Part shown: in pieces, positions 6,249-38,858 of the stretch
How the letters are laid out: every line of letters starts with the position of its first letter
Numbering within the stretch: position 1 is the first letter of the stretch
Sequence record: MZ681930.1
Direction: 5' to 3' (one strand)
Length of the DNA stretch: 64,000 bases
From: Enterobacteria phage phiC600P9
Notes under the pieces: model-generated
What the model was told of the DNA's origin: nothing
Database searches by the model: none
Seen by the model: only the letters and a program-made list of their open reading frames with translations
Program-made: the position numbers and the translations under genes

Positions 6249-6447
6249 AGCTAAACTGTTTGGCACCCTTCCAGCCTTCATACATCATTGCGGCTGATAT
6301 TAATATTGCTCCTGCGCATTTTGAATATTTGTGATTCCAAAACCAGTTCAGAAAAACTTCGTCATCAATACCTTGGGCTATCATATTTTCAAAGAACTGA
6401 CGACGAGCTTCGGCAATTCGTTGCGATAATTTAGATTCAGGATTCAT
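6247..6447 (-). CDS. Hypothetical protein
   Basis: Track ORF, 66 aa. Confidence 0.45.
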   Translation of the reverse strand: MNPESKLSQRIAEARRQFFENMIAQGIDDEVFLNWFWNHKYSKCAGAILISAAMMYEGWKGAKQFS

Positions 6448-6579
6448 TTAAATTTTCCAATTGCCATTTTCATCAATGAATTTAATCCAGTCATTTACTG
6501 ACCACTTGGTCGTATCGCCTTTTGGAGCAACATTTAAAGTGTATAATCCTTGTTTAAAAAGCATGCGTTTGATATTCAT
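6448..6579 (-). CDS. Hypothetical small protein
   Basis: Track ORF 6448..6663 shortened to the internal ATG at 6579, which has SD GAGGAAAA and avoids a 77-nt overlap. Confidence 0.35.
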   Translation of the reverse strand: MNIKRMLFKQGLYTLNVAPKGDTTKWSVNDWIKFIDENGNWKI

Positions 6580-6586
6580 ATTTTCC

Positions 6587-6880
6587 TCAGCTGTAACGAT
6601 AGCACTCGTTTGATTTACGTTTAGCAACTCGTTGAGAAGTATTATAATCAAAATCGTCATCAATGTAAACTGATTTTTTCAACTTTCTTACTTCACTACG
6701 TAATTGACGATTTAACTCATCTTTAACTTCTGAATCAATGCCTTTCATTCTACGCCATTTATCAGAGCGAAAAATGTTTTCAACCATATCTTTATGACTT
6801 ACGCCATCAGGAGCTTTACGCTTTCCGAAATAGTCATAATCACGTACTTTTAAATCTTTACGACGATACGTTTTACCCAT
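6587..6880 (-). CDS. Hypothetical basic protein
   Basis: Track ORF 6587..6925; ATG at 6880 verified, SD AGGAAA upstream. Confidence 0.45.
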   Translation of the reverse strand: MGKTYRRKDLKVRDYDYFGKRKAPDGVSHKDMVENIFRSDKWRRMKGIDSEVKDELNRQLRSEVRKLKKSVYIDDDFDYNTSQRVAKRKSNECYRYS

Positions 6881-7055
6881 GGAGTTTAATTTCCTTAGCA
6901 ACTGAACTAAATACAGCACGATCACAAATCATCTGTTTATGTAACTTGAGTATAAGATAATAAACTTCAAAACCGTTTACATAAGTAACACGAACAACAT
7001 TACCATTAATAAAATAATATTGTCCCTTTTTAATTTCTTTATCAACCACAACCAT
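6873..7055 (-). CDS. Hypothetical protein
   Basis: 60 aa; ATG verified; SD GAGGA; early promoter just upstream. Confidence 0.5.
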   Translation of the reverse strand: MVVVDKEIKKGQYYFINGNVVRVTYVNGFEVYYLILKLHKQMICDRAVFSSVAKEIKLHG

Positions 7056-7085
7056 ATCAAATCCTCAAAGGCAATTCATATGTTA

Positions 7086-7115
7086 ATAATACCACAGTTT
7101 GAACTTCTTGTAAAC
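7086..7115 (-). promoter_or_regulatory. T4-type early promoter
   Basis: Minus-sense GTTTACA, 17 nt, TGTGGTATTAT; A-rich tract upstream. Confidence 0.6.
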
Positions 7116-7196
7116 AACTTTGTGAAAATTATTTTAGGGAACGATAAGAAGGGAACGATAGCTTAGAATGGTAATATACAGAATGCGAGAAAGAAA

Positions 7197-28972: not shown

Positions 28973-29446
28973 TTATTTGAACGATTTAACGTACTGAATA
29001 GAACCTTTACTATTCACGAAAGCGATTTTACCATTTTTATTATACATGGTAGCAGTACGCTGATAGCCATAAGTTTGCTTACCAGATTGATAACCAACTA
29101 ATGCAAAATTATCTTCACCCATTTTATTCTGTTTAGCGCGAATGCGTTCATGACCATGTGCCATAAGAACCTTAGCATCACCAGTTGCAATGGATCGACG
29201 AGTTTTTTCATCTTCAACTGTATTAACAAAGTCGTCAAATGAATCAAATTTAGCATGAGATTTATTATACAGTTTTCCATCTACTGCATAATTATATCCC
29301 TGTACATCCATCTCAACTTCTGTACCATCATCCAATACAGCAGTGATTTTCTGTCCTTTTTTAAATTTCAAAAGATCAGTAAAAGATTCAGCAATAATTT
29401 GAGAATTAATAGCTGCTTCAGTAATAAATTCTTGATATGTTTTCAT
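28973..29446 (-). CDS. Internal head protein (CTS-bearing; ipIII-locus)
   Basis: 157 aa; N-terminal MKTYQEFITEA capsid-targeting sequence with LxE/IxE protease-site pattern; upstream of e as in T4. Confidence 0.7.
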   Translation of the reverse strand: MKTYQEFITEAAINSQIIAESFTDLLKFKKGQKITAVLDDGTEVEMDVQGYNYAVDGKLYNKSHAKFDSFDDFVNTVEDEKTRRSIATGDAKVLMAHGHERIRAKQNKMGEDNFALVGYQSGKQTYGYQRTATMYNKNGKIAFVNSKGSIQYVKSFK

Positions 29447-29462
29447 GTGTATCCTTTAATTT

Positions 29463-29780
29463 TTATTCTTTAGGGAAGTTTTTAGAATATGCATCATAAA
29501 GCTTATTTCCAATACGGCGGAAAACTCTAGCCGCAAAACGATTTTCTGGGTTTTTAATCATGATTTGCATCATATAAGTACCCGCGTCAGAAAGAGCTTC
29601 TTCATAGTACCCGTTAATTTCTTTAAGAGTCCTACGTTTACCACCAGGACCATCAACAGTGATTTTCCATTTACCTGTAGAAGTGCGACTTGGCGGCTCA
29701 ACTTGTTCAATCCAGATATAACCGCCTTCTACACGTTGTCCTGCAGCAGATTCTGCAATAAATTCTTTATAGGTTTTCAT
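29463..29780 (-). CDS. Internal head protein (CTS-bearing; ipII-locus)
   Basis: 105 aa; N-terminal MKTYKEFIAES; early promoter 38 nt upstream. Confidence 0.7.
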   Translation of the reverse strand: MKTYKEFIAESAAGQRVEGGYIWIEQVEPPSRTSTGKWKITVDGPGGKRRTLKEINGYYEEALSDAGTYMMQIMIKNPENRFAARVFRRIGNKLYDAYSKNFPKE

Positions 29781-29817
29781 GTGTTTCCTTTAAATATTTT
29801 AATTAGTAATTGTGAAT

Positions 29818-29847
29818 ATACTATCACAGTTTTAGGAGAAAGTAAAC
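29818..29847 (-). promoter_or_regulatory. T4-type early promoter
   Basis: Minus-sense GTTTACT, 17 nt, TGTGATAGTAT. Confidence 0.55.
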
Positions 29848-29851
29848 AACT

Positions 29852-30382
<531 letters not shown>

Positions 30383-33309: not shown

Positions 33310-33645
33310 TTATTCTTCGTCTAGCTCGTCGATAAAGACGTTGATGGCCTCGATAACGGCATCATTGATAGCTAATAAAATAAAATCATCGTCAGTACCT
33401 TTAGAAGATTCTAAAGCATTGATATATGCTTGGTTGGCGAGTTCCCAAGCCTTTTTAAAATAAGGAGCTTCATCATCAGGACAAATATCCCGCACGCCTT
33501 CAAAGATACGTTTGGCATAATCTAACACCCATTGTACAGGCATGTTTTGAGAACGTTCGTTAAACTCTTTAAAGTCCTTAGATTCAAAAAGCTCTTCAGG
33601 ATAATTATTTCTATTACAAAAAGCTTTACTAAAGTTACGTTTCAT
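33310..33645 (-). CDS. Hypothetical acidic protein
   Basis: Track ORF, 111 aa. Confidence 0.5.
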   Translation of the reverse strand: MKRNFSKAFCNRNNYPEELFESKDFKEFNERSQNMPVQWVLDYAKRIFEGVRDICPDDEAPYFKKAWELANQAYINALESSKGTDDDFILLAINDAVIEAINVFIDELDEE

Positions 33646-33701
33646 AATGTTTTCCTCATTTGTATAGGCTCATAATATCTCAATCATGAGCCTATGTAAA
33701 C

Positions 33702-33965
33702 TTATTTCATATTATTGAAATATTCTTCTGCGATTTCGTCGTTATCATGGTAAACTTTAGAAGACAGTTTAACATAACTTTCAGCAGTGAACATGTTAAT
33801 CACAACCTTTACAGTATACCACTGACCATCTTCATTACCCATTACTGCGTAAGTTTCAAACATCGGATGATCAGGACCGATAACTTTAATATCATTCACT
33901 GTACGACCAAAATCTTCTGAAACACATTTCATAAAGAAGTTGAACAGTTCACCGTAATTATCCAT
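33702..33965 (-). CDS. Hypothetical protein
   Basis: Track start 33977 is TTG; ATG 33965 has SD GGAG; 87 aa. Confidence 0.5.
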   Translation of the reverse strand: MDNYGELFNFFMKCVSEDFGRTVNDIKVIGPDHPMFETYAVMGNEDGQWYTVKVVINMFTAESYVKLSSKVYHDNDEIAEEYFNNMK

Positions 33966-34135
33966 TTCATTCTCCAAGTTGTTTTCTGTATCAGTAGTTG
34001 ATAGTTGTATAGTACCATGGAAGAACAGGGAAGTTTTAGGGAATTCTAGGGCAGGGAGGGGAAATCAAAGGATAGGATAATATATTATAAAGGGTAGAAA
34101 CTAAATGATGTCTAGAGAGGCCTGGAAAGGCCTAG

Positions 34136-34171
34136 ATACCAAAAAGCCCCAACCTTTCGGCTAGGGCTAAG
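34136..34171. repeat. 36-bp direct repeat, copy 1 (contains terminator hairpin)
   Basis: ataccaaaaagccccaacctttcggctagggctaag; matches 34691..34726 at 35 of 36 positions. Confidence 0.9.
34141..34170 (-). terminator. Rho-independent terminator (10-bp stem, GAAA loop, U5)
   Basis: Minus-sense AGCCCUAGCC-GAAA-GGUUGGGGCU followed by UUUUU, 6 nt after the stop of ORF 34176..34649. Confidence 0.7.
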
Positions 34172-34175
34172 AATG

Positions 34176-34649
34176 TTATTTGATTTGTTTAGCAGACCAA
34201 ATGCGGTCTTTAATAATTTTTTGGATGTCTTCAACATATTCAAGAGAGTGAACATGTGGGTTATCTTTGAAACTATAAGCACGAGCTAGCTTTTGGCCTT
34301 CAGTTTTGATTACTAAAAGCTCTTTAAGGATAGCTTCATATCTGGAGATAATTCCTTTAACGATATTTTTCTCTTGTGTGACTTTAGGATCTGCTTTAGG
34401 AGCAGGTTTACCCGAAGCCTTTGCAAAAGCAGCGCCAGTAGCAACTAAACTTTTCCAGGCCATACTAACTGCATTCCCTGTAAATCCTTCGGCTTTCATA
34501 TCACGAGCAAATTGGAATCGTGATTCATCGGAAGCATCTTTATAGGAATATTTACCCGCGGCAATGGCTGCTTTTGCGACAGCTTGAATTTCGGTGCTAG
34601 ATGCTTCATTTAACACCGCTTCATTTAAAAATTGAGCATATGATTTCAT
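34176..34649 (-). CDS. Internal-protein-like protein with capsid-targeting sequence
   Basis: 157 aa; N-terminal MKSYAQFLNEAVLNEA (CTS-like, LxE sites); Ala/Lys-rich; ATG verified; flanked by the 36-bp direct repeats. Confidence 0.6.
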   Translation of the reverse strand: MKSYAQFLNEAVLNEASSTEIQAVAKAAIAAGKYSYKDASDESRFQFARDMKAEGFTGNAVSMAWKSLVATGAAFAKASGKPAPKADPKVTQEKNIVKGIISRYEAILKELLVIKTEGQKLARAYSFKDNPHVHSLEYVEDIQKIIKDRIWSAKQIK

Positions 34650-34690
34650 CTTATTTCCTGTTTTAATTCGTGGTTTTAATATACTTATTT

Positions 34691-34726
34691 ATACCAAAAA
34701 GCCCCAACCTTTCGGCTGGGGCTAAG
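34691..34726. repeat. 36-bp direct repeat, copy 2 (contains terminator hairpin)
   Basis: ataccaaaaagccccaacctttcggctggggctaag; pairs with 34136..34171. Confidence 0.9.
34696..34725 (-). terminator. Rho-independent terminator
   Basis: Minus-sense AGCCCCAGCC-GAAA-GGUUGGGGCU plus UUUUU, downstream of the stable-RNA region. Confidence 0.7.
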
Positions 34727-34775
34727 CCTTGCGGCAACCTTGTCGGGGTTCCACCTGCTAAGGCAAGTGTTTGTA

Positions 34776-34866
34776 CGAAACGCCGGGACTTGAACCCGGT
34801 TATTAAGTAGTTGACGCTACTCAATATTTTTAAAAGGCCATATCTCGACCATATCCGAACGTTCCG
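34776..34866 (-). ncRNA. tRNA-like stable RNA (candidate analog of T4 species 1/2 RNAs)
   Basis: 7-bp acceptor-like stem (CGGAACG/CGUUUCG) and canonical T-arm CCGGG-UUCAAGU-CCCGG, but oversized non-canonical body (91 nt); no ORF; lies downstream of tRNA cluster. Confidence 0.4.
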
Positions 34867-34869
34867 TCA

Positions 34870-35034
34870 AAAACGCTACTCGGCTTACGGCAAAGATATT
34901 TCCTCGAATCGATAATTCGGTGCGCCGTTTCTGCTGTGATGTAAGGGGATATTAACAAATCGTAAAGATTTATTAAGACCAGTCCTTACTCAGGGAACAT
35001 CAGTCCGACGACTTACCGGTAGCGACCCGGTTTC
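34870..35034 (-). ncRNA. Second structured non-coding segment (possible stable RNA)
   Basis: 165-nt ORF-free region between ORF 35035..35385 and the tRNA-like element; boundaries not determined. Confidence 0.25.
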
Positions 35035-35385
35035 TTAATATTCTTTTAAAGCATCAATCTGTTCACGGCGTTTACGCCATAAATCAATTGCTTCATACGC
35101 GGATTCAGCATTTCGAATTGGTCGGCATTTATGTAAAGACTTGTGATTTTGATATTTTGTAGATAATGGAATTTTATCTAAAAGGTCTTTACGTTCAAAG
35201 TATTCGTAACCATCTAAACCAAATGAACGATTTTTGAGAAATTGCCAATGACCGTATTCGTTTTGGATGTAAATATAATCCGCGTGTTGATAAAGCAAAT
35301 TAGTTTCACGAGATGAGATATGGTTTTCATATTCATTGAAGTAAAATGTTAAATCATGAACTACTAAATAAACATTACCTTTCAT
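35035..35385 (-). CDS. Hypothetical protein
   Basis: 116 aa; Tyr/His-rich; ATG verified; sits between tRNA-Arg and the stable-RNA region. Confidence 0.5.
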   Translation of the reverse strand: MKGNVYLVVHDLTFYFNEYENHISSRETNLLYQHADYIYIQNEYGHWQFLKNRSFGLDGYEYFERKDLLDKIPLSTKYQNHKSLHKCRPIRNAESAYEAIDLWRKRREQIDALKEY

Positions 35386-35403: not shown

Positions 35404-35479
35404 TGGTCGAGGCAGTAGGGATCGAACCTACGACCCAGGACTTAGAAGGTCCTTGCTCTTCCTTCTGAGCTATGCCTCG
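35404..35479 (-). tRNA. tRNA-Arg (anticodon TCT)
   Basis: Hand-folded cloverleaf: acceptor CGAGGCA/TGCCTCG, anticodon loop CTTCTAA, T-loop GGTTCGATCC, encoded CCA. Confidence 0.85.
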
Positions 35480-35483
35480 TATT

Positions 35484-35558
35484 TGGCGGACGTGATAGGA
35501 TTCGAACCTATAACCAATCGCTTAACAGGCGATCGCTCTGCCATTGAGCTACACATCC
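35484..35558 (-). tRNA. tRNA-Asn (anticodon GTT)
   Basis: Acceptor GGATGTG/CACGTCC, anticodon stem ATCGC/GCGAT with loop CTGTTAA, T-loop TTCGAAT, CCA encoded. Confidence 0.8.
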
Positions 35559-35562
35559 AAAT

Positions 35563-35649
35563 TGGTGGGGAGTGATGGAGTCGAACCACCCGAGTCGCAA
35601 TGACAATGGATTTACAGTCCACACCGCTACCTCTACGGGATAACTCCCC
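35563..35649 (-). tRNA. tRNA-Tyr (anticodon GTA), long variable arm
   Basis: 87 nt; acceptor GGGGAGT/ACTCCCC, anticodon loop CTGTAAA, long variable arm, CCA encoded. Confidence 0.8.
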
Positions 35650-35658
35650 AAATTAATT

Positions 35659-35733
35659 TGGTGGCCCTGGGTGGAATTGAACCACCATCTGGCGATTATG
35701 AGTCGCTTGCTTGAACCTTCCAGCTACAGGGCC
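35659..35733 (-). tRNA. tRNA with anticodon CAT (Met or lysidine-modified Ile)
   Basis: Acceptor GGCCCTG/CAGGGCC, anticodon loop CTCATAA, T-loop TTCAATT, CCA encoded. Confidence 0.75.
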
Positions 35734-35734
35734 T

Positions 35735-35810
35735 TGGTGCTGATTGACGGAATCGAACCGCCGACCTTCTCATTACAAGTGAGTTGCTCTACCTACTGAG
35801 CTAAATCAGC
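35735..35810 (-). tRNA. tRNA-Thr (anticodon TGT)
   Basis: Acceptor GCTGATT/AATCAGC, anticodon loop CTTGTAA, T-loop TTCGATT, CCA encoded. Confidence 0.85.
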
Positions 35811-35815
35811 AAAAC

Positions 35816-35905
35816 TGGCGGAGGCGATAGGATTTGAACCTATGAGTCGCCGGAGCGACTGCCGGTTTTCAAGACCGGTGCATTAAACCACTCTGCCACG
35901 CCTCC
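35816..35905 (-). tRNA. tRNA-Ser (anticodon TGA), long variable arm
   Basis: 90 nt; acceptor GGAGGCG/CGCCTCC, anticodon stem CCGGT/ACCGG with loop CTTGAAA, CCA encoded. Confidence 0.85.
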
Positions 35906-35908
35906 AAA

Positions 35909-35916
35909 TATTTATA
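35909..35916 (-). promoter_or_regulatory. Late promoter motif TATAAATA upstream of tRNA-Ser
   Basis: Exact TATAAATA on the minus strand, 4 nt upstream of the tRNA-Ser 5' end and overlapping the segB-like stop. Confidence 0.35.
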
Positions 35917-36562
35917 TATTGCTAATTTGATTTAGAATTCTTTTTGCTTGAGTATGACTTACGCCAATATGCTTAGCATATTTAGATAATTCACCACGCT
36001 TAGAAAAATCATATAATTTAGAAATTTCTATTCTTCTTTTTCTTTCATCCGCAGAAACTTTTGCTTCGTTTGCTTTTGCTATTTTACGTTTAGCTTCTTG
36101 AGAATGATTTTTACCAGCAAAGCCATTCTTCATTAATCCATTTGAAGACCATCCTTTTAATTTTCCGTTAGAATGTGCCTTTTTAACACCCAATGAAATT
36201 AATTCGCGTTGCTGATCTGTCATAGGATAATTATTTATATGGTCCCATCCACCTTCTCCGCCAAGTTTTAAATTATACACATCTGGTCTATTTAAAAACT
36301 CTTCTGTGACAATATTTTTCTCGGCTTCAAGCATAGATTCTTTATCATCAAAATACTCTAATATTTCTTTAGAGAAATTTTCTATACCATACTTGTCTTG
36401 GGCTCTTTTTAATAATTTACCAGAACCCATATATCCATCATCTAAATTTTCGGTAGAATGCACACCAATATAAATTTTATTATTAATTTTATTTGTTATT
36501 TTATAAAGATAAAAATGCATATCAGTCCCTAATAAAGAACTGAGCGTCTCACGACGAGTCAT
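35912..36562 (-). CDS. segB: GIY-YIG homing endonuclease (SegB-like)
   Basis: 216 aa; GIY-YIG motif YLYKITNKINNKIYIGVHS ... GYMGSG; basic C-terminal DNA-binding region; located between the two tRNA subclusters as T4 segB. Confidence 0.85.
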   Translation of the reverse strand: MTRRETLSSLLGTDMHFYLYKITNKINNKIYIGVHSTENLDDGYMGSGKLLKRAQDKYGIENFSKEILEYFDDKESMLEAEKNIVTEEFLNRPDVYNLKLGGEGGWDHINNYPMTDQQRELISLGVKKAHSNGKLKGWSSNGLMKNGFAGKNHSQEAKRKIAKANEAKVSADERKRRIEISKLYDFSKRGELSKYAKHIGVSHTQAKRILNQISNI

Positions 36563-36566
36563 AAAT

Positions 36567-36640
<74 letters not shown>

Positions 36641-36645
36641 AAATT

Positions 36646-36732
36646 TGGTGCGAGAAGTGGGACTCGAACCCACAAGGAAATCATTCCGCAGCATTTTAAG
36701 TGCTGTGCCTTTACCAATTTGACCATTCTCGC
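36646..36732 (-). tRNA. tRNA-Leu (anticodon TAA), long variable arm
   Basis: 87 nt; acceptor GCGAGAA/TTCTCGC, anticodon stem CAGCA/TGCTG with loop CTTAAAA, CCA encoded. Confidence 0.85.
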
Positions 36733-36733
36733 G

Positions 36734-36806
36734 CTGGGAATAAAGGACTCGAACCTTTGCATCCTGGAATCAAAATCCAGTGCCTTACCAACTTGGCTAA
36801 TTCCCA
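36734..36806 (-). tRNA. tRNA-Gln (anticodon TTG)
   Basis: Acceptor TGGGAAT/ATTCCCA, anticodon stem CTGGA/TCCAG with loop TTTTGAT; 3' CCA not encoded. Confidence 0.8.
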
Positions 36807-37831: not shown

Positions 37832-38089
37832 TTATTTTAAATCTTCTAATCGTTTCTTCATCTTAGAACCGTTCTTAGCGATTTCGCCTGCATCAGAGCA
37901 TAATGCTAAAAGCGCTTTAACTTTAGTTTGGTCTCCTTTAAAAGATGAAGGATCGACTGCAGCAGCAAGTTCTTTAATACGAGAGAAAAGACGCTCAGCT
38001 TCAGCTAAAGCCATTCCAAGCTTTACTTCCATACCATGAGAAGATTCAGTAATAGTAGTTTTTGTAGCAAACTCTTTGAAAGTTTTCAT
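37832..38089 (-). CDS. Internal-protein-like protein with capsid-targeting sequence (ipI locus)
   Basis: 85 aa; N-terminal MKTFKEFATKTTITESSHGME; occupies the position between 57B and the tRNA region where T4 has ipI; ATG verified. Confidence 0.6.
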   Translation of the reverse strand: MKTFKEFATKTTITESSHGMEVKLGMALAEAERLFSRIKELAAAVDPSSFKGDQTKVKALLALCSDAGEIAKNGSKMKKRLEDLK

Positions 38090-38119
38090 TTTATTTTCCT
38101 AATTAATTTTGATGAGGTA

Positions 38120-38149
38120 ATAGTATCACTACCTCATCAGTATGTAAAC
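38120..38149 (-). promoter_or_regulatory. T4-type early promoter
   Basis: Minus-sense GTTTACA, 17 nt, GTGATACTAT, 31 nt upstream of the ipI-locus gene. Confidence 0.6.
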
Positions 38150-38161
38150 AACTTTATGAAA

Positions 38162-38858
<697 letters not shown>

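Follow-up and report, generated by a model that had tools for sequence, protein, structure and literature searches.

How does a single small gene come to be bracketed by two copies of the same transcription terminator, and what kind of protein does it encode? The question is raised by a locus in Enterobacteria phage phiC600P9, a Tequatrovirus (sequence record MZ681930.1, 100% identical to record MT630408 of this phage), in which an open reading frame (ORF) of 157 codons, called ORF157 here, lies on the minus strand between e.8 and the stable-RNA/tRNA cluster. A sequence-only reading of the 64,000-nucleotide stretch analysed here (the window, to which all coordinates refer unless another genome is named) had proposed that this gene encodes a virion-packaged, injected protein and that the direct repeats around it offer a substrate for swapping cassettes between co-infecting phages. 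The best explanation of our data, and one that we consider probable, is that the repeats bound an exchangeable late transcription unit encoding an injected internal protein (IP), located at a third IP locus. The argument turns on the following elements.

34691..34726, minus strand: upstream 36-nucleotide copy of the repeat, predicted intrinsic terminator closing the tRNA/rnaD/rnaC unit and ortholog of the one copy in T4 (locus L002, 6826-6860)
34686..34693, minus strand: match to the T4-type late promoter consensus TATAAATA, overlooked by the sequence-only reading
34656..34659, minus strand: putative Shine-Dalgarno sequence AGGA, 6 nucleotides before the ATG, read from minus-strand ...ACAGGAAATAAGATG
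34176..34649, minus strand: ORF157, candidate internal (head-packaged, injected) protein of 157 amino acids starting MKSYAQFLNEAVLNEA; RB32ORF133c / AR1_137 family, phrog_2280
34605..34649, minus strand: codons 1-15 of ORF157, a propeptide of capsid-targeting-sequence (CTS) type, MKSYAQFLNE/AVLNE/A, with two L-x-E sites of gp21 type, after residues 10 and 15
34136..34171, minus strand: downstream 36-nucleotide copy of the repeat, predicted intrinsic terminator of the ORF157 transcript, its stem having one additional G-U wobble

The coordinates of the two repeats (34136-34171 and 34691-34726) and their identity at 35 of 36 positions were exactly as first reported, and they are the only matches to the 36-mer in the window at up to three mismatches, as compared to none in 100 shuffles. 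The terminator with a 10-pair stem that had been described in each copy is likewise present, although the active strand could be specified as the minus strand. When read on that strand, each copy contains a 10-pair stem with 6-7 G-C pairs, a four-nucleotide GAAA loop and a T-run, the upstream one being laid out as AGCCCCAGCC-GAAA-GGTTGGGGCT plus TTTTGGTAT. Predicted RNA folding of the minus strand gives -18.3 and -20.6 kcal/mol (z about -3), versus -9.7 and -15.9 kcal/mol for the plus strand, where the hairpins are weaker because of G-U wobbles at two stem positions; the hairpins were therefore assigned to the strand that encodes ORF157 and the tRNAs. The downstream terminator begins 4 nucleotides past the ORF157 stop codon and the upstream one follows rnaC, such that both copies are predicted to combine a G+C-rich hairpin, a U-tract and a position at the end of a unit, as rho-independent terminators do. 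Terminators are annotated at equivalent positions in JB75 and other records. Among 26 distinct related copies 90% of cells are paired, versus at most 69% in slid registers. Covariation is modest, with one compensatory pair (C-G to G-C, in 3 sequences), and the hairpin is therefore supported mainly by conservation and thermodynamics. The upstream copy is primarily the native terminator of the tRNA/rnaD/rnaC unit.

Directly behind this strong predicted terminator, and 36 nucleotides 5′ of the ORF157 ATG, lies TATAAATA. On the minus strand the upstream copy continues directly into the motif, as ...GGGGCTTTTTGGTATAAATAAG..., the first four bases of the motif being the last four of the repeat; the repeat ends in the shared GTAT. 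The T4 late-promoter consensus spans -13 to -6, with A or T usual at -13 in T4-like phages (PMC1524935), and taking the motif as -13 to -6 would place the start of ORF157 transcription at about 34680. The motif occurs 10 times on the minus strand of the window, this site included. In the form (T/A)ATAAATA it is kept before ORF157 orthologs in all loci examined (AR1, ECML-134, JB75, JK45, KAW3E185 and the loci L017-L024), and it stands 30-45 nucleotides 5′ of every examined ORF157-family gene as well as of ORF187, another gene found at this site. At the level of sequence motifs, ORF157 would be synthesized late, during prohead assembly. Altogether, the 555-bp unit comprises the late promoter, the Shine-Dalgarno sequence, ORF157 and a terminator.

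A terminator hairpin joined to a promoter calls to mind the PeSL (promoter-early stem-loop) and PmSL linkers, which isolate modules transcriptionally and provide short homology for insertion, deletion and replacement, and PeSLs are known to excise as mini-circles (Arbiol et al. 2010, PMC2839356; Comeau et al. 2014, PMC4122927). Could the ORF157 linker simply be a PeSL, as described by Arbiol, Comeau and Krisch? Both are terminator-promoter composites found at the borders of indels or replacements between close relatives, both flank variable ORFs in a plastic region, the stem-loop terminator of PeSLs has a predicted counterpart here, and the repeats bound a unit that could in principle excise as a mini-circle. 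However, the promoter is a sigma-70 early one in PeSLs and a MotA middle one in PmSLs, whereas the promoter here is of the late (gp55) type, and there is no sigma-70-type site between 34650 and 34690, in the interval from the hairpin to the ATG. Furthermore, PeSLs are dispersed elements numbering in the dozens, whereas the ORF157 linker is one locus-specific family with 2 copies in 64 kb, and 1-2 copies per genome at one locus. Membership in the PeSL class was rejected for want of an early promoter and of dispersal, and we regard it as very improbable.

In T4 there is no ORF between e.8 and rnaC, and a single 36-mer is positioned just 3′ of rnaC. In blastn alignments, window positions 33600-34170 correspond to T4 (L002) 6259-6860 and positions 34691-35035 to 6826-7169, and the left and right flanks of the cassette are collinear with T4. 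A single 35-bp segment of T4 thus corresponds to both copies in the window, such that phiC600P9 carries one extra 555-bp unit; the downstream copy is then followed by GGTATCTAGG, the same as in T4. Comparison of the sequences showed that homologous recombination between the two repeats would yield exactly the empty configuration of T4 and PST, and that the reverse event would insert the unit.

To survey this site, INPHARED phages (about 800 related records) were searched with an empty-site query of 778 nucleotides, composed of e.8, flank, one 36-mer, rnaC and rnaD; IMG/VR contained few T-even contigs, a 22-mer matching exactly in 3 places and the protein at 9 loci. Spans of about 808 bp represent the empty site (T4, RB10, F2, ACG-C40, G2540-3 and SHFML-26, of which RB10 and F2 were called from span lengths, while the T4 and PST loci were dissected), spans of about 1335-1367 bp the ORF157 cassette, and a span of about 1490 bp a larger insert, the other records matching through one flank only. 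Dissection of individual loci revealed the following arrangements.

Empty site: T4, PST
ORF157 only: phiC600P9, AR1, L017, L020
ORF187 only: Killian, ESh27; RB69 with an apparently frameshifted copy
ORF157 and ORF187 in tandem: JB75, ECML-134, L018, L019, phiE142
ORF154, an ortholog about 75% identical to ORF157, between two terminator copies: JK45, KAW3E185, L023
ORF157-family gene plus an ORF for a membrane protein, in one repeat-bounded unit: L021, L024
ORF208, another gene with the leader, preceded by the same terminator and TATAAATA: HX01
ORF127 followed by the rnaC trailer and terminator, TATAAATA and ORF184, in that order: VR20

The suggestion that the 36-mer might be found around different cargo genes was thereby confirmed, since the junction is empty or holds ORF157, ORF187, the tandem pair or the genes of HX01 and VR20. 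Nor is the 36-mer a generic terminator, the finding that would have spoken against that suggestion: it was found at 1302 places in 814 records, 1-2 per genome, and at this locus wherever inspected. One copy accompanies an empty site or ORF187 alone, and two copies accompany ORF157; the 488 surplus copies roughly match the approximately 467-511 records with ORF157. ESh27 has three copies, of which two were not located, the locus fetched showing ORF187 only. Overall, ORF157 is present in 511 of about 800 related records and absent from T4, T2 and PST, in keeping with a non-essential gene of variable presence, and ORF187 is present in 165 records at 95-100% identity. The upstream junction of ORF187 reads GGGGCTTTTT/AGTTTG, and its downstream junction is formed by another hairpin, with the end ...GGGCTTTTT/GGTATCTAGG; ORF187 thus joins the same flanks in the 3′ arm and U-tract of the hairpin (GGGCTTTTT). 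Every junction at the site is located within the terminator, and the states empty, ORF157, ORF187 and both, all four of which are found in nature, could therefore be interconverted by crossovers in the terminators. The sequence data thus support the proposal that the repeats are a recombination substrate for cargo swapping.

Two side observations concern relatives of these sequences. About 100 Klebsiella T4-like phages each contain, one time per genome, a 33-nucleotide sequence with 88% identity to the 36-mer (for example, PQ657796 65316-65348), at a different locus, by or within genes annotated as baseplate wedge or tail lysozyme. In Yersinia phage fHe-Yen9-01 (L025 1922-3037) two leader-bearing ORFs adjoin, a 189-amino-acid ORF (MLQYNEFLKESLISEA) and a 178-amino-acid relative of ORF157 (MLEYSEFLKE), both behind one TATAAATA and not separated by a terminator core; to judge from the sequence, genes of the leader-bearing class appear to be arranged here in the manner of an operon.

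Several points weigh against an exchangeable unit. The ORF157 family is found at one and the same place, following the tRNA/rnaC region, in every genus with a locus examined, namely Tequatrovirus, Mosigvirus and Jiaodavirus (fHe-Yen9-01, whose flanks were not examined, is excluded from this statement), and such constancy fits equally with vertical inheritance and occasional loss. The repeat is short, at 36 bp, and the ORF187 junctions share about 9 bp, such that exchange would have to be rare or assisted by flank homology; for comparison, Arbiol 2010 (PMC2839356, citing Singer 1982) describes T4 recombination as needing patches of <50 bp. Deletion between the repeats would by itself account for the empty state. 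The repeat could be a passive footprint, the scar of a single ancient event (the arrival of a gene together with the operon terminator, or its duplication of that terminator) followed by vertical descent and occasional deletions, with no role in exchange. This account does not readily explain why cargos unrelated to one another are found at one site, joined to it within the terminator, or why tandem and single states coexist. In neighbor-joining trees of the flanks the states are interspersed, the empty T4 and PST stand apart from each other, and the left and right trees disagree, although these trees, built from 309-471 aligned columns, can be called no more than suggestive, given short alignments and no bootstrap support. 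In some genomes rare variants are common to both copies (a TTAC loop in KAW3E185, GGCCC/GGGCC in L021) and other genomes are chimeric, a pattern that fits inter-copy conversion and inter-phage exchange alike. Moreover, the e.8-ORF187-rnaC block of RB69, a Mosigvirus, has about 96% nucleotide identity to Tequatrovirus, which suggests a recent inter-genus transfer of that block. Given these observations, we think it unlikely that the repeats are only a scar. The RB69 genes concerned (L007 2004-2566; RB69ORF148c/149c) resemble a frameshifted ORF187.

What, then, does the unit carry? IP propeptides consist of 10-19 residues and are cut by gp21 after L/I-X-E, and IPIII needs no more than its initial 10 residues to be packaged, with targeting determined mainly by positions 4 and 7 (Tyr/Phe and Phe, respectively) (PMC9026906). 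The ORF157 sequence has Tyr at position 4, Phe at position 7 and predicted gp21 sites at L8-N9-E10 and L13-N14-E15. Residues 11-15 appear to be a tandem duplication of five residues (FLNEA VLNEA; codons 6-15, 34605-34634), which the 154-amino-acid orthologs lack (MKSYAEFLTEQSSS). The same site scan applied to T4 placed the cut at residue 19 for IPI and at residue 10 for IPII and IPIII, inside the cited range. When ORF157-family members with as little as 34% identity are aligned, neither F7 nor the Glu of the cleavage site varies, and only Y or F is seen at position 4. ORF157, ORF187, ORF208 and ORF127 have in common only the leader (Y/F4, F7, L/I-x-E), except that ORF157 weakly resembles ORF208 toward the C-terminus, and their predicted mature products are of 11-21 kDa with isoelectric points (pI) of 9.5-10.3. 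That otherwise unrelated cargos share a leader of about 11 residues and nothing else, that F7 and the Glu are invariant, and that the mature products are small and basic all strengthen the original CTS reading. The C-terminal halves of ORF157 and HX01 ORF208 (L012 1797-2423) are 27.5% identical over 69 amino acids (E = 7e-4), and on this evidence may share a distant domain.

The sequence-only reading had matched this leader among four ORFs of the window. The strict pattern M-K-[ST]-Y-x-x-F-[IL]-x-E holds for three of them, ORF157, 28973-29446 and 29463-29780, and for no other ORF in the window; the latter two are IP genes, the first 100% identical to PST IpIV and the second encoding an IP of 105 amino acids. 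The fourth, 37832-38089 (MKTFKEFATKTTITE), lacks the strict pattern and has a longer leader of the T4 IPI type, and is 100% identical to PST IpV.

It might be argued that ORF157 is a late protein which is not packaged, its leader-like N-terminus being a relic of recombination with no targeting role. The leader is short, its residues 7-14 are modelled at pLDDT <50, and we found in the literature no virion proteomics, no N-terminal sequence and no other physical evidence of ORF157 packaging, a point that counts against our explanation; literature searches on the ORF157-family gene names, fHe-Yen9-01 proteomics and Ip7-Ip13 returned nothing relevant. Yet a relic would hardly be expected to retain the same residues at positions 4, 7 and the cleavage site down to 34% identity, nor to be kept in four unrelated proteins at one site; in the window, the strict pattern is otherwise confined to two IP genes. 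That 10 N-terminal residues are enough to package IPIII, positions 4 and 7 being critical (PMC9026906), and a dedicated late promoter that fits the timing of prohead assembly argue in the same direction, and the relic therefore seems to us decidedly improbable. Judging by these features, ORF157 very probably encodes a protein that is packed in the head and injected into the host.

The remainder of the protein resembles little else. Pfam gave no match to ORF157, and PHROGs gave only phrog_2280, of unknown function. A sequence-profile search of the PDB returned one evidently spurious match, to a designer-PPR, and Foldseek with the ORF157 model against the PDB gave a best E of 1.4. BFVD contained only the family itself and one uncharacterised protein of a Serratia T4-like phage, and a hidden Markov model scan covering 1.84 billion representatives yielded 14 proteins, each of them small and phage-like. 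The family is thus tiny and confined to T4-like phages. Nevertheless, the ratio of nonsynonymous to synonymous substitution rates (dN/dS) against orthologs is 0.06-0.09 (with dS saturated for distant pairs), which identifies ORF157 as a real gene under strong purifying selection. Across the family the N-terminal domain (AGKYSYKD.SDESRF...GF) is conserved, a Pro/Lys/Ala linker is present and the C-terminal half varies, and the AlphaFold model is all-alpha with two domains (mean pLDDT 73). Its predicted mature form of 142 amino acids is lysine-rich, with a mass of 15.6 kDa and a pI of 9.61, as compared to 8-20 kDa and pI 9.0-9.7 for the T4 IPs. All records found name ORF157 'hypothetical protein', and none of ORF157, ORF187, ORF208 and ORF127 bears an Ip name.

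ORF157 therefore invites comparison with T4 IPI*, IPII and IPIII, to which it is alike in its leader, L/I-x-E site, small basic mature protein, non-essential nature and variable presence. Past the leader there is no sequence similarity, and IPI* has a compact alpha/beta fold (PMC3012670) whereas the prediction for ORF157 is an all-helical protein with the Pro/Lys/Ala linker joining its two domains. A different GmrSD is inhibited by each of Ip1-3 (Silas et al. 2025, PMC12373910), and the site of action of IPIII is the cytoplasm (PMC9391042). No homolog of known function is detectable for ORF157, and an anti-defence role for it thus follows by analogy only, which also has to be set against the explanation we prefer. 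A packaged ORF157 could, for instance, be a generic basic protein that associates with DNA or assists assembly, a role that has been proposed for IPIII in the head, rather than an inhibitor of defence. Such a role would suit its predicted lysine-rich mature form, and IP lysines do contact packaged DNA (PMC3012670) and head assembly is slower in IPIII mutants (PMC9026906). It sits less well with a gene that is dispensable in nature, being absent from T4, T2 and PST, with the specific GmrSD target of each of the three T4 IPs (PMC12373910), and with a presence/absence polymorphism typical of host-range accessory genes. On balance, we consider a purely generic role rather doubtful.

Taken together, an injected protein encoded by a self-contained, exchangeable late unit could work as follows. 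By its sequence the unit consists of a gp55-type promoter, a ribosome-binding site, the 157-codon gene and a terminator copied from the tRNA/rnaD/rnaC operon. The upstream terminator would stop read-through, such that ORF157 is made only late, at the time of prohead assembly. Its propeptide (Y4, F7, L-x-E) would bind the scaffolding core, and gp21 would trim 10 or 15 residues. The basic mature protein of about 15.6 kDa would enter the head along with the DNA and reach the host by injection in the following infection, where, in the most speculative step and by analogy to Ip1-3, it might neutralise a first-response host defence, the likeliest being a restriction variant of type IV (GmrSD-like). 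A third T-even internal-protein locus would accordingly be present at the rnaC/e.8 junction, with a recombination linker that is a composite of terminator and late promoter.

How does such a locus relate to those already described? In 1994 Repoila, Tetart, Bouet and Krisch reportedly described non-homologous small IP genes with a common N-terminal leader of about 10-11 residues and homologous flanking blocks (as cited in PMC4122927 and PMC12373910); the number, order and identity of the ORFs are said to vary between phages, and a host-range role to have been proposed. Later, in 2007, Bair and Black reportedly dealt with T4 internal proteins as injected inhibitors of GmrSD type IV restriction. 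The loci of 1994 and the ORF157 site are alike in leader, homologous flanks and variable ORFs. They differ in position, ipI lying between trna.4 and 57B and ipII/ipIII between denV and e, as compared to rnaC and e.8 for ORF157, which is at neither classical locus; those loci hold IpV, IpIV and the 105-amino-acid IP in phiC600P9. The Krisch-lab annotation of PST likewise places IpIII-VI at the two classical loci only, and recent literature counts 'two Ip loci' (PMC12373910). The regulatory context differs as well, the classical IP genes of the window having blocks of early-promoter type on their 5′ side (TTTCATAAAGTTGTTTAC...GATACTAT), and ORF157 the terminator and late promoter. Near-identical TTTCATAAAGTTGTTTAC...N...GATACTAT blocks occur at 29781-29890 and 38090-38200, 5′ of the classical IP genes and of the genes following; from their sequence, these are probably the conserved flanking blocks of the 1994 work, or else PeSL-like elements. 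The principle of shuffling is therefore already known, and what is new is an unlabelled, probable third IP site with a locus-specific linker made of terminator and late promoter.

The surroundings of the cassette differ between phages in further ways, and two neighbouring features define its context.

33702-33977, minus strand: e.8 homolog (starting MDNYGEL...), 3′ of the cassette
34727..35037 (approximate limits), minus strand: 3′ trailer and rnaC and rnaD homologs, 5′ of the cassette, 93.6% identical to T4 L002 6826-7169 by blastn

The rnaC and rnaD homologs (about 34774-35037, minus strand) matched no Rfam 15 family at gathering thresholds; T4 rnaC and rnaD (the species 1 and 2 stable RNAs), long known, appear to be without a covariance model. 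Beyond them, nine tRNAs are encoded on the minus strand at 35404-36806 (Arg, Asn, Tyr, Met, Thr, Ser, Gly, Leu and Gln). The T4 set is different (Arg, Ile, Thr, Ser, Pro, Gly, Leu and Gln), and AR1 and others add tRNA-His. Between rnaD and tRNA-Arg lies a 116-amino-acid ORF (35035-35385, minus strand; phrog_3355, unknown function; MKGNVYLVVHDLTFYF...), which is also present in AR1, RB69, JK45 and HX01; in T4 rnaD and tRNA-Arg adjoin (1 nucleotide), making this ORF another indel difference in the stable-RNA cluster. A 216-amino-acid ORF (35912-36562, minus strand) is located inside the tRNA cluster, between tRNA-Ser and tRNA-Gly, and two TATAAATA motifs lie at 35916 and 36239; its AR1 counterpart is annotated as a putative Seg-type endonuclease (segD), and T4 SegB is found elsewhere in the cluster. 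On the other side of the cassette, about 31 nucleotides present in T4, JB75 and Killian (TTTTAAAAATTTTTTCACAAAACTGTTTACAT in T4) are missing at window position ~34031/34032, 5′ of e.8 on the minus strand. The missing segment holds the -35-like GTTTAC of an apparent e.8 early promoter, whose -10 TACTAT is kept, and from the sequence this promoter may be disabled in phiC600P9.

Work from 2022 to 2025 established that all three T4 IPs counteract particular type IV restriction enzymes, and the same is expected of other Ip genes (PMC12373910). Against this background we tentatively propose that the rnaC/e.8 junction might be an unrecognised Tevenvirinae IP locus, whose cassettes could encode new injected inhibitors of host defences (for example, of GmrSD subtypes) and might be exchanged through a late counterpart of PeSLs. 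The ORF157/154, ORF187, HX01 ORF208 and VR20 ORF127 cassettes are present in >600 sequenced phages and are all annotated as hypothetical. The Ip catalogue is still bound to the two loci defined in 1994, and this site adds at least 4 unannotated leader-bearing families. Since these families occur in hundreds of therapeutic and model coliphages, their members are candidate host-range determinants and anti-defence proteins. The natural states, with an empty site, ORF157, ORF187 or both, would also make it simple to measure how often recombination passes through a regulatory linker of 36 bp, and the signature of leader, late promoter and terminator could be used for finding injected proteins in other T4-like genera.

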